Origin: an uncultured Clostridia bacterium
Lineage (GTDB): Bacteria; Bacillota; Clostridia; Christensenellales; UBA1242
DNA length: 64,000 nucleotides
Direction: 5' to 3'
Assembly (NCBI GenBank): GCA_944349515.1
Contig: CALVNE010000004.1
Location: forward strand, 2,166 to 66,165
The notes under the pieces were generated by a model. That model did no database searches. It was not told the origin of the DNA and saw only the letters and a list, made by a program, of their open reading frames with translations. Numbering within the stretch: position 1 is the first letter of the stretch; the number at the start of each line of letters is the position of its first letter. Below, one piece after another: positions 1,111 through 60,618 of the stretch. A program made the position numbers and the translations under genes.

Positions 1111-1139
1111 TTGACAATTAACTTTTTTAATTTTATAAT
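1111..1139 (+). promoter_or_regulatory. consensus sigma-A-type promoter immediately upstream of the ATG at 1146 (leaderless candidate)
   Basis: TTGACA at 1111-1116, 17-nt spacer, TATAAT at 1134-1139. Only 6 nt (ATCCAT) lie before the ATG, with no Shine-Dalgarno. Confidence 0.5.
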
Positions 1140-57274: not shown

Positions 57275-57634
57275 ATGACTAAGAAGGAAAAGTTGGTCAT
57301 GTCATATTTATGCGAGAGATGTCAAAAGAAGAAAACTTATCTTATCTCTCCGCAAGAAATTACTTCTGCACTGTCGAAGAAGTATGTTTTATCTATTGAT
57401 GAAATTGATGAGATTATGGTAGGGCTTTCCAATGCCAACTTCATAGATTTTGTAATCTCAGACGGTAAGAAGGGGTATATGTACTGTGTGACATTAAAAA
57501 AGTGCGGGCAGACTTATCTTTCCGATGTTAAAAATCAAAGAAAGACGCTGGGTATCTTGGTGCTACGCTCTATTTTTCTTGCCACTGTCAGTTTTATCTT
57601 TGGTATCATTTTAAAGGCGATTTTTAAATCGTGA
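57275..57634 (+). CDS. membrane-tethered winged-helix-like protein (paralogue of 34561-34929)
   Basis: 119 aa. Has a wHTH-like N-domain and a C-terminal TM (ILVLRSIFLATVSFIFGIILKAIF). TGcTTAAAT lies 7 nt before the ATG, with no SD. Confidence 0.55.
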   Translation: MTKKEKLVMSYLCERCQKKKTYLISPQEITSALSKKYVLSIDEIDEIMVGLSNANFIDFVISDGKKGYMYCVTLKKCGQTYLSDVKNQRKTLGILVLRSIFLATVSFIFGIILKAIFKS

Positions 57635-57729
57635 TTTGGCATTTTTTTTGCTTAAATACGGAAAAATTTAGCTGTTTTCTTTTAAAATTTAAGAGAAATA
57701 GCGAAAATTTAAAAAATTTAAAAATTTAC

Positions 57730-57758
57730 TTGACAAATCCCCCCCCCCGTTTTATAAT
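57730..57758 (+). promoter_or_regulatory. consensus promoter whose 17-nt spacer contains a C10 homopolymer (candidate phase-variable promoter)
   Basis: TTGACA at 57730-57735. The spacer is AAT-CCCCCCCCCC-GTTT, with the C tract at 57739-57748. TATAAT at 57753-57758. SD AAGGAGG and the ATG at 57789 lie downstream. Confidence 0.65.
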
Positions 57759-57788
57759 GGCGGTGAGAGTGAATTTAAGGAGGTTAAA

Positions 57789-58523
57789 ATGCAAAAAACA
57801 AAATCTAGAAAAATTTGGGCGGTGCTCGCTGTTTCTGTTATGCTTGTTGCATTCATGTTTTTAGCAACTGCCTGTGGTGGTTCAAAGACTGAAAGCGTTT
57901 CCACATATCAGGAACTCGTTGACGCACTTGCTGGAAACTGCGACATAGTTAAACTTGAAAACGACATCGTTGTTGAAGATGGCTTGGTTGTTACAAGAGA
58001 AGTTGTGCTTGACATGAATGGAAAAACTCTTTCTAACAATGAGGACATTTGGCATGAAGTACAGCCGGGAGAAGAGGGAGTTAGCACTCTTTCTATCATC
58101 GCTGTTGAAGAAGGTGGAGATTTGACCGTTAAAGGTAACGGAACAATTCGCGCAAAAGAGAATGACTGCTACGCGTTTGATGTTTCAGGTGGCGGACACC
58201 TTGTTATTGAAGACGGCACATATGTTGGAAATATAAGCGTTGTGTATGTGTTAGATGGTTCTGCTGAAATTGAAGGCGGAAGATATTCTATTCAACAACT
58301 CAATCCAACAAAAGACTATCAGTTCACATTAAATTTACAAGATGATTGTTACACCAATGGAACAGGAAGCATTGTTGTGACAGGCGGAACTTTTGAGAAT
58401 TTTGACCCATCAAAAAACGCCGCTGAAAGTGATGACCTTTCCACAAACTTTGTTAAAGAAGGATATATTTCAACTTTAACAATGGAAGGCGAGTTGACGA
58501 CATACGTTGTGACAGAGGTGTAA
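57789..58523 (+). CDS. surface lipoprotein with beta-helix-like domain
   Basis: The signal peptide ends in FLATAC. STYQELVDALAGNCDIVKLENDIVVE...LDMNGKTL resembles the module starters of the giant protein. 244 aa. Confidence 0.7.
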   Translation: MQKTKSRKIWAVLAVSVMLVAFMFLATACGGSKTESVSTYQELVDALAGNCDIVKLENDIVVEDGLVVTREVVLDMNGKTLSNNEDIWHEVQPGEEGVSTLSIIAVEEGGDLTVKGNGTIRAKENDCYAFDVSGGGHLVIEDGTYVGNISVVYVLDGSAEIEGGRYSIQQLNPTKDYQFTLNLQDDCYTNGTGSIVVTGGTFENFDPSKNAAESDDLSTNFVKEGYISTLTMEGELTTYVVTEV

Positions 58524-58547
58524 TTTAACTTTAGTATTTTTAAAAAG

Positions 58548-58580
58548 TTGTATGAGTTGCTCTCCTCATACAATTTTTTT
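58548..58580 (+). terminator. rho-independent terminator
   Basis: TTGTATGAG (58548-58556), 8-nt loop, CTCATACAA (58565-58573), then T7 (58574-58580). Confidence 0.7.
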
Positions 58581-58597
58581 ATTGCTATTAAAACTTT

Positions 58598-58626
58598 TTG
58601 TTGTTTATGATATTTTGTGATATAAT
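58598..58626 (+). promoter_or_regulatory. promoter with extended -10, 6 nt from the uvrB ATG (leaderless candidate)
   Basis: TTGTTG at 58598-58603, 17-nt spacer ending TGA, TATAAT at 58621-58626, ATG at 58633. Confidence 0.45.
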
Positions 58627-58632
58627 ATAAGT

Positions 58633-60618
58633 ATGAATAATGAAAGAAGTGAACATGATTTTGAACTTGTGAGTAAGTATAAACCTGCGGGTGACCAACC
58701 AAAGGCAATTGAAGAGTTGGTGGAAGGGTTAGAAGACGGGCTTAAAAGTCAAGTGCTTTTGGGTGTAACCGGCTCTGGTAAAACCTTCACTATGGCAAAC
58801 ATCATCGCAAAAGTCAACCGTCCGACGCTTGTGATTGCGCACAACAAGACGCTTGCGGCACAACTATGCAACGAGTTTCGTGAGTTTTTCCCAAACAACC
58901 GTGTGGAATATTTTGTTTCATATTACGACTATTATCAGCCGGAAGCCTACATCGTTTCGAGCAATACATACATCGAAAAAGATATGAGCGTCAATGACGA
59001 CATCGACAAACTTCGCTCTTCTGCGACTTCTTCGCTACTAGAGAGGCGAGATTGCATTGTTGTGGCGTCGGTTTCTTGCATTTACGGCTTGGGTATACCG
59101 GAAGAATATTTGAACCTTCACATTGCTTTGCGACCGGGTGACGAGTGCGATCGCGACAACCTCATCTCGCGACTTATCAATATTCAGTACACGCGCAACG
59201 ACATCGACTTCAAGCGCACGACCTTTCGTGTTAAGGGTGACACGGTGGATATCTTTCCGGCGAACCTTTCCGAGTCGGCGATTAAAGTGCGATTCTTTGG
59301 TGATGAGGTGGAGAAGATATATGAGTTTGAGCCTGTCAGCGGAAATTTGCTGCGCGAACTAAAATACGTGGCAATCTTCCCAGCGACGCACTATGCAGTT
59401 GGTAAAAACAGAATGGAAAACGCGCTTGTTGAAATCGAAAAGGATAGAGAAAAGGCGATTGAGGGCTTCACAAGGGAAGGCAAAGCGTTGGAGGCTGAGC
59501 GTATCGGACAGCGTGTAGCGTATGACCTTGAAATGATGCGCGAGGTGGGTTATTGCAGTGGCATCGAAAACTATTCGCGCTATTTTGATGGACGAAAACC
59601 AGGCGAGCCACCGTATACGCTTATCGACTATTTTCCGGATGACTTTTTAACAATCATTGACGAAAGCCACATGACCATTCCGCAGATACGCGCGATGTAT
59701 AACGGCGACCAAGCGCGAAAAAAATCGCTAGTCGATTATGGTTTTAGACTCGAGGCGGCGAAAGATAATAGACCGCTTAAATTCGACGAGTTTGAAAAAA
59801 GACTGAAACAGACAATCTTTGTTTCGGCAACGCCGGGGAAATACGAGCTTGAAAAGGCAGGGCAGGTTGTGGAGCAAGTCATCCGACCAACAGGCTTACT
59901 TGACCCGACCATTGAGGTGCGACCTATTAAAAATCAGGTGGACGAACTTATGGAAGAGTGCCGAAAGACGATTACACGCGGTGCGAGAGTTTTAGTTACC
60001 ACTTTAACTAAGAAAATGGCGGAAAGTTTGACAACATACTTAACCGACCACTCCTTTAAGGTGAAATATCTACACTCCGAAATCGACACCATGGAGCGTG
60101 TGGAAATAATAAACGGACTAAGGCAAGGCGAGTTTGATATACTTGTCGGCATCAATCTTTTGCGTGAAGGCTTGGATATGCCAGAGGTGGAACTTGTCTG
60201 CATTTTGGATGCGGATAAAGAGGGCTTCCTTAGAAGTGAAGGTGCGCTTATTCAAACGATTGGTAGGGTGGCGCGTAATGCTAATGGGCGTGTCATCATG
60301 TTTGCGGACACCATCACCGACAGTATGCGCCGGGCGATGGACGAAACTGCGCGCCGAAGAAAACTTCAAATGGAATATAACGAAAAGCATGGTATTGTGC
60401 CAAAGACGATTATCAAGGAAATTAAAAACACGCTTGAAATCGGCAAGAAAGTCACCGACCAGCACTTATCAAAACGCGACATACCGCTTGAAATTGACAG
60501 GCTAACATCGATGATGAAAATTGCCTCTTCTCAACTTGACTTTGAGCGCGCGATTGAATTAAGAAACAAAATTGTGCAACTTAAAAAGAGATTGAATAAG
60601 AAAGAAGAAATAGAGTGA
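58633..60618 (+). CDS. uvrB: excinuclease ABC subunit B
   Basis: 661 aa. Has [12 protein letters not shown], the DESH box, helicase motifs, and the C-terminal UVR domain ([13 protein letters not shown]). Confidence 0.95.

Follow-up and report, generated by a model that had tools for sequence, protein, structure and literature searches.

A Poly-C Tract in the Spacer of a Consensus Promoter: a Candidate Phase-Variable or Rheostat Promoter of a Lipoprotein Gene in an Uncultured Gut Clostridia Lineage

In the DNA analyzed here, a stretch of 64,000 nucleotides from an uncultured Clostridia bacterium that is called the window below, ten consecutive cytosines lie between the -35 and -10 boxes of a promoter in front of a lipoprotein gene, and this raises the question of whether the run serves as a length switch for the expression of that gene. 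A sequence-only reading had proposed such a phase-variation switch, in which slipped-strand mispairing changes the distance between the two boxes. The mechanism that it invoked is well documented in Neisseria: unstable homopolymers are located between -10 and -35 in porA, fetA, and opc (PMC2791445), multi-level "rheostat" expression has been described for promoter-located repeats (PMC2791445), and a 17-nt spacer is optimal for porA (PMC7864442). On the evidence presented below, we consider it probable that C10 is a slippage-prone tract in a phase-variable (multi-level "rheostat") promoter of the porA/fetA type that controls the lipoprotein gene.

ENA contig ERZ28614028 scaffold_670, from sample SAMEA6814456, has the same sequence as the window, and the nearest named genomes are those of uncultured Clostridia MAGs and of Candidatus Caccovivens faecavium. 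Caccovivens belongs to the family UBA1242 of the GTDB order Christensenellales (PMC8035907). The genes of the window, among them mfd, dnaE, pfkA, whiA, transketolase, uvrB, and uvrA, mark it as core chromosome; those of the UvrB and UvrA families follow the lipoprotein gene. Because of this gene content, an origin from a prophage or mobile element, considered in view of nearby HNH and amidase genes, was rejected. At 12789-33197 on the plus strand, the window also has one open reading frame of 6802 aa, which probably encodes a giant cell-surface protein; the first 404 aa, which were scanned, gave a sub-threshold Ig-like match, and the ortholog of 6686 aa in contigs L010/L011 has a faint match to Peptidase_M26_N.

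The promoter, its tract and the controlled gene

Reading out the sequence and a script gave the same promoter that the sequence-only reading had described: the consensus -35 hexamer TTGACA at 57730-57735, a spacer of exactly 17 nt at 57736-57752, and the consensus -10 hexamer TATAAT, without a TGn extension, at 57753-57758, all on the plus strand. The spacer is AAT-CCCCCCCCCC-GTTT, where CCCCCCCCCC is the C10 homopolymer at 57739-57748 (plus strand), the mutable element that sets the spacer length. Among the orthologous loci of the window type (group A, see below), the -35 hexamer is the same in 12 of 12, and AAT and GTTT are invariant around a variable middle that includes this tract.

The tract is exceptional for its surroundings, as had been claimed. 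No other C or G run in the 64,000-nt window, whose G+C content is 41%, reaches 6 nt, and the next longest ones have 5 nt. A first-order Markov model of the window gives an expected number of 0.0005 for C runs of at least 10 nt, and about 8.7 for G/C runs of at least 6 nt, of which one was observed; such runs are therefore otherwise avoided in this genome. The exact arrangement TTGACA-N17-TATAAT is found twice in the window (positions 1111 and 57730), as against 0.00 times in 100 dinucleotide-preserving shuffles, and the one at 57730 is the only promoter matching at 12 of 12 positions within 55-61 kb. The other one (1111-1139, plus strand) is located 7 nt upstream of an open reading frame starting at 1146, and its spacer consists of A and T only, without a tract. 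TTGACA-AAT-C10-GTTT-TATAAT has a simple-sequence repeat between recognizable -35 and -10 hexamers, as porA/fetA-type promoters do, and C10 is a G:C run in the range of hypermutable length (about 8 nt or more).

Directly 5' of the -35 box, at 57704-57729 (plus strand), lies an A/T-tract block of about three copies of AAAATTTAA (period 8 and 2.9 copies by a tandem repeat finder), which is possibly UP-element-like or curved DNA; this block is not conserved in the sister lineage. The promoter ends 30 nt upstream of the gene, and a short 5' leader is predicted at 57764-57788 (plus strand), with the start site placed about 6-8 nt after the -10 box and a Shine-Dalgarno sequence AAGGAGG at 57777-57783. 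Since folding of the leader gave no significant RNA structure (z = +1.07) and an Rfam scan of the whole window found no family, a riboswitch or attenuator was dropped as a candidate. Downstream of the gene, an intrinsic terminator-like hairpin with a T-run at 58542-58579 (plus strand) has a 15-pair stem followed by a T-rich tail, and is retained elsewhere within the 1.14-kb cassette described below. Judging from this layout, promoter, gene, and terminator-like hairpin are predicted to form a compact monocistronic unit.

The controlled gene (57789-58523, plus strand; ATG at 57789 in the list of open reading frames) encodes a 244-aa precursor, and its designation as a lipoprotein gene proved correct: a signal peptide at aa 1-28, with a basic n-region and a hydrophobic stretch, leads to the lipobox L-A-T-A-C, whose Cys29 is invariant among 56 aligned homologs. 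The gene is single copy in the window, and its coding sequence has no tandem repeats. None of its 115 homologs is annotated, and searches of Pfam and NCBIfam with the lipoprotein, the 119-aa protein encoded upstream, and a 302-aa protein of contig L021 (see below) gave nothing above threshold. The match of the lipoprotein to PF20585 Pectate_lyase_5 ("putative pectate lyase-like adhesive domain") reached 14.0 bits (E = 0.059) against a gathering threshold of 24.3 bits, and a precomputed PF20585 match is found only for two distant homologs. An AlphaFold model from 56 sequences (pLDDT 88.8, pTM 0.81) has many short beta-strands. A Foldseek search of this model against the PDB gave no significant match (best E = 0.4), and the best among the weak matches were right-handed beta-helix proteins, i.e., pectate lyase 7xks, the L. 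reuteri SRRP adhesin 5nxk, and autotransporter passengers. As modeled, the mature domain would be an all-beta, beta-helix-like domain of no assigned function, and exposure of the protein on the cell surface is plausible.

Tract alleles across lineages and between close strains

Orthologous loci of Christensenellales (family UBA1242, a Caccovivens-like genus) have been collected; they stem from about 60 contigs of gut metagenomes and MAGs that were obtained independently. The distribution of tract lengths is based on ENA, Logan, and NCBI contigs, which are consensus assemblies, and a pattern scan of JGI metagenomes for tract variants yielded one locus, L098 (T-C10). A G:C homopolymer located 0-4 nt beyond the -35 box is retained in six diverged lineages, as poly-C in some and poly-G in others, with spacers of 16-20 nt and tracts of 7-14 nt over all lineages. 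In group A, with the frame TTGACA-AAT-...-GTTT-TATAAT, the middle is C10 in the window, C8TC in L002, or T-C9 in L003/L004, L008, and L019 (all with 17-nt spacers), C9 in L006/L007 and L018 (16 nt), T-C10 in L098 and CCAC8 in L016/L017 (both 18 nt), and CCAC9 in L005 (19 nt). Group B, with 68% protein identity, has TTGACT-Cn-AGCCATAT-TATAAT, where C8 (spacer 16) is found in L009 and L015 and C9 (spacer 17) in L010-L014. Group C has TTGACA-TT-Gn-ATATTTGG-TAAAAT, with G7 (spacer 17) in eight contigs and G8 (spacer 18) in L021 and L028. Group D has TTGACA-T-Gn-AnTTTGA-TATCAT, with G8 (spacer 17), G9 (18, or 19 with an extra A), G11 (19), and an interrupted G6AG4 (18), while group E has TTGCTA-CTA-C9-GGTACTG-TACAAT with a 19-nt spacer in seven contigs. 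Group F is represented by L022, where tandem promoters occupy L022:2780-2960 upstream of the ortholog: TTTACA-AA-C14-GTGA-TAAAAT (spacer 20) and, upstream of it, TTGACA-TACA-C12-TGA-TAAAAT (spacer 19). Runs of A20 and A17 separate the two, and their tracts are the longest that we have seen.

An extended -10 box (TGn) is present in groups C, D, and F, where it may relax the spacing requirement, and is absent in groups A and B. The promoter of the window lineage should therefore depend fully on the distance between its two boxes.

The comparison of tract length among strains, which the sequence-only reading had proposed as a test, gave a positive outcome, C9 (16 nt), C10 (17 nt), and T-C10 (18 nt) being found in the same promoter. 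The tract varies in length and integrity in a promoter that is otherwise frozen. In 11 group-A loci, 85 flanking nucleotides of promoter and leader (30 nt upstream, 9 nt on the side of the -35 box, and a 46-nt part reaching from GTTT to ATG) are identical, yet there are six tract alleles; when the window is included, the 55 promoter-proximal nucleotides (9 + 46) show one variable site in group A, which lies in the 46-nt part, while dS in the gene is 0.26-0.34. Often the tract is the sole indel in 1-6 kb of pairwise alignment. Thus, L009 and L010 align over 5857 bp with 15 mismatches and one gap, which is the tract, and L021 and L099 align over 2718 bp, again with the tract as the only indel (one gap). 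Between L018 and L019, the 732 nt of coding sequence do not differ at all, while the tract is C9 (spacer 16) in L018 and T-C9 (spacer 17) in L019. Outside group A, close strains with conserved flanks differ as C8/C9, G7/G8, and G8/G9/G11. The gene is intact at every spacer state from 16 to 19 nt, with dN/dS of 0.12-0.72, and this fits reversible or transient states of low expression rather than terminal silencing.

What is seen is that close strains differ, rather than that a single clone switches, and minority variants cannot be shown by consensus assemblies. The first alternative to be weighed is a slow evolutionary tuning knob, in which the tract mutates often enough for strains to differ and for expression levels to become fixed lineage by lineage, but too slowly to produce functional mixtures within a clone. 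Several observations speak for it. No pair of contigs with 100% identical flanks differs in tract length, one consensus length being found each time, and the length is invariant across different samples in three sub-lineages, for G7 (8 contigs), C9 of group E (7 contigs), and G6AG4 (4 contigs). Several group-A alleles (TC9, C8TC, and CCAC8) are substitutions rather than products of slippage, and interrupted alleles such as TC9 and C8TC, which both keep 17 nt, and G6AG4 look like stabilized versions of particular states, as if the state had been locked. Against this, slipped-strand mispairing makes uninterrupted G:C runs of 9-14 nt inherently unstable at the scale of populations (PMC5953494), and minority variants would be invisible in consensus sequences. 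Furthermore, the uninterrupted tract has persisted through a synonymous divergence (dS) of about 0.3 and in different genera, and this implies that the homopolymer itself is under selection. We therefore regard the slow tuning knob as unlikely, while it is the best surviving of the alternatives. Logan per-run contigs L112 and L113 (positions 1-10 of each) start inside or right after the poly-G tract of group D; these breaks are weakly suggestive, being compatible with branching of the assembly graph at a tract of heterogeneous length or with a drop in coverage.

If, instead, the G:C block were a static element, either structural (a rigid A-like G:C tract) or a binding site for a protein or regulator, the length differences would be tolerated noise. 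The conserved position beside the -35 box in six lineages accords with this explanation, as does the exchange of C for G, since a G:C duplex is physically similar whichever strand carries the Cs. A static element should, however, be constrained in length, whereas the tracts and spacers vary over the ranges given above. The homopolymer, on either strand, is the sole spacer feature common to the lineages, the surrounding spacer bases not being conserved and no further motif being shared; more distant orthologs (L024-L026, L029-L034, L041-L044, and others) do without the tract and have ordinary promoters with no G:C run; and with both boxes at consensus no activator is needed. This explanation is thus very improbable. 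Least credible of all is a technical artefact, in which the tract is real and its length differences are homopolymer errors of sequencing or assembly: many contigs have low coverage (e.g., cov 1.8-10 in record names) and the Logan contigs mentioned above break inside or at the tract, but most alleles recur in independent assemblies from independent samples and assemblers (3 for C9, 4-5 for TC9, 5 for C9 of group B, and 2 for C8 of group B), lengths correlate with the flanking SNP haplotype, and substitutions within the tract are not a product of homopolymer length error, so that read error is an inadequate explanation.

Proposed mechanism and known systems

The locus is a well-supported candidate for a phase-variable or rheostat promoter of the porA type. 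In such a promoter, replication slippage in C10 would lead to gain or loss of a C and would change the spacer by 1 nt per event, from 17 nt with C10 to 16 nt with C9 or 18 nt with C11. For a promoter of the sigma-A/sigma-70 type, an altered spacer would alter the contact of the holoenzyme with both boxes: at 17 nt the sigma-A holoenzyme would contact both consensus hexamers optimally and expression would be high, at 16 or 18 nt activity would be lower, and at 15 nt or fewer and 19 nt or more it would be very low. If slipped-strand mispairing occurs at high frequency within clones, and if a change of tract length alters transcription, as we infer, the population would consist of sub-populations with high, reduced, and very low expression of the lipoprotein.

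A strict scheme in which C10 is ON and C9 and C11 are OFF is probably too simple, because some lineages (groups D, E, and F, with G8 of group D listed at 17 nt) have spacers of 18-20 nt throughout their samples, and these would be permanently low under a strict rule that only 17 nt is ON. Graded expression, i.e., a multi-level rheostat, more likely fits the data than a strict ON/OFF switch.

On three sequence-level features, namely, a tract in the spacer, a length out of the ordinary, and polymorphism among strains whose flanks are conserved, the locus appears porA/fetA-like. In porA (poly-G) and fetA (poly-C) of Neisseria meningitidis, an unstable G:C homopolymer in the spacer likewise sets the spacing, so that a surface protein is expressed at several levels (PMC2791445; PMC7864442). 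The present promoter shares this geometry, and among its natural alleles there are differences of 1 nt in either direction. Unlike these, the present host is an uncultured gut Clostridia bacterium of the Gram-positive type (Christensenellales UBA1242) and not a proteobacterial pathogen, and the target, for which we infer switching and an effect on expression, is a lipoprotein of no assigned function and not a porin or receptor. In the vlp system of Mycoplasma hyorhinis, a poly-A tract in the promoter spacer controls variable lipoprotein genes, which form a multigene family with repetitive coding regions. The likeness lies in a homopolymer between -35 and -10 that controls lipoprotein genes of a host-associated bacterium related to Bacillota; since the present gene, single copy in the window, has a poly-C/G tract instead of poly-A, no multigene family, and no coding repeats, a vlp-type system was rejected.

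Variable promoter homopolymers also modulate the transcription of surface-protein genes in Neisseria opc (poly-C) and Treponema pallidum tpr/tprL (poly-G) (PMC7864442). The opc tract overlaps the -35 region and the tprL tract overlaps the -10 region (PMC7864442), so box spacing is not the variable there, whereas the tract here is strictly within the spacer. Gram-positive precedents have a different layout. In Streptococcus pyogenes M28, naturally polymorphic 1-nt indels in the intergenic T tract of Spy1336/R28-Spy1337 change the transcript levels of a surface protein gene (PMC7098570); this is alike in the Gram-positive host, the 1-nt indels in a polymorphic intergenic homopolymer, and the kind of gene, but that tract lies between divergent genes and acts via a regulator axis, whereas the present one is a G:C tract within a core promoter spacer. 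In a search of full-text literature, no prior description of such promoters was found for Clostridia, Christensenellales, or Caccovivens.

Recombining cassette, further tracts and significance for the family

The lipoprotein gene and its promoter are part of a 1.14-kb cassette (window 57467-58602). It contains the final 55 codons of the 119-aa gene that lies upstream, followed by the intergenic region, the promoter with its tract, the lipoprotein gene, and its terminator. Four assemblies, independent of one another, have this cassette inside trpS (L016:2548-4411, and also in L005, L017, and L019). There, trpS is split into two pieces, an N-fragment that covers model positions 5-66 and is fused to the tail of the 119-aa gene, and a C-fragment that covers positions 131-328; about 64 codons of trpS are lost, and no repeats are evident on either side of the inserted cassette. 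In a comparison of window 57276-58970 with L018, a block that runs from the 119-aa gene over the lipoprotein gene into the first part of uvrB has a nucleotide identity of 88-100%, while the rest of uvrB has 70-80% and the background around the block about 75%. About 150 nt just upstream of the -35 box interrupt the block with only about 70% identity. These identities are signs of a recent inter-species recombination, of which the block would be the footprint. The protein P0007 (L016:3001-3723) is near-identical to the window protein in its N-terminus and its last 45 or so residues, as is its promoter, and resembles the P0020/P0025 group in its center; this mosaic suggests intragenic recombination.

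At the related loci, every other G/C run of at least 7 nt is also found in a promoter spacer, namely, at L021:4807 and, in the tandem promoter with C12, at L022:2804. The run in L021, a sister species, belongs to a second and unrelated gene, a 302-aa open reading frame (L021:4769..3861) that is convergent to the lipoprotein gene and has no Pfam or NCBIfam family. Its promoter (L021:4769-4840, minus strand) is TTGACA-ACT-C8-ATTGA-TATAAT, with a 16-nt spacer, an extended -10 box, and the tract at L021:4807-4814. In an uncultured Eubacterium MAG, a distant homolog is preceded at about 1.5 kb by the sequence TTGAAA-AAATTTC-G10-TAGAAT (L056:1470-1520), which has a 17-nt spacer with G10 directly against the -10 box. 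Runs of G8 at L036:4025, L036:6203, and L038:3890 lie within the coding sequence of large beta-helix-like proteins with a distant homologous domain in Bacteroidales MAGs, and are possible sites of translational phase variation.

Three observations raise the possibility, which we put forward only tentatively, that G:C spacer tracts are a clade-wide and selectively maintained contingency strategy of the gut family UBA1242: the tract is found with genes that are unrelated to each other (the lipoprotein gene and the 302-aa gene of L021), it has been re-invented on either strand, and it travels with a promoter and gene cassette of 1.1 kb that recombines between species, even into trpS. Repeat-driven contingency loci are textbook knowledge for a few pathogens, such as Neisseria, Haemophilus, Campylobacter, Mycoplasma, and Treponema, while the literature that we found on phase variation in gut commensals deals mostly with DNA inversions and methylation. 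The promoter switch proposed here is of a known kind, in a lineage for which the literature found holds no earlier description of such promoters, and the locus provides a clean example, supported by comparison, in a lineage of uncultured Christensenellales, one that is common in the gut metagenomes of chickens and humans.

Such tracts are also sites where metagenome assemblies silently collapse real heterogeneity of populations, and the present locus can be tested directly from existing read archives. Fluctuating selection in the gut (e.g., by IgA or other antibodies, by phage, or through adhesion trade-offs) probably acts on the uncharacterized family of beta-helix lipoproteins, if the protein is exposed on the surface as supposed. 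If the clade-wide strategy is true, a lifestyle of surface variation like that of Mycoplasma and Neisseria would be present in a lineage of commensal Clostridia that has never been cultured.
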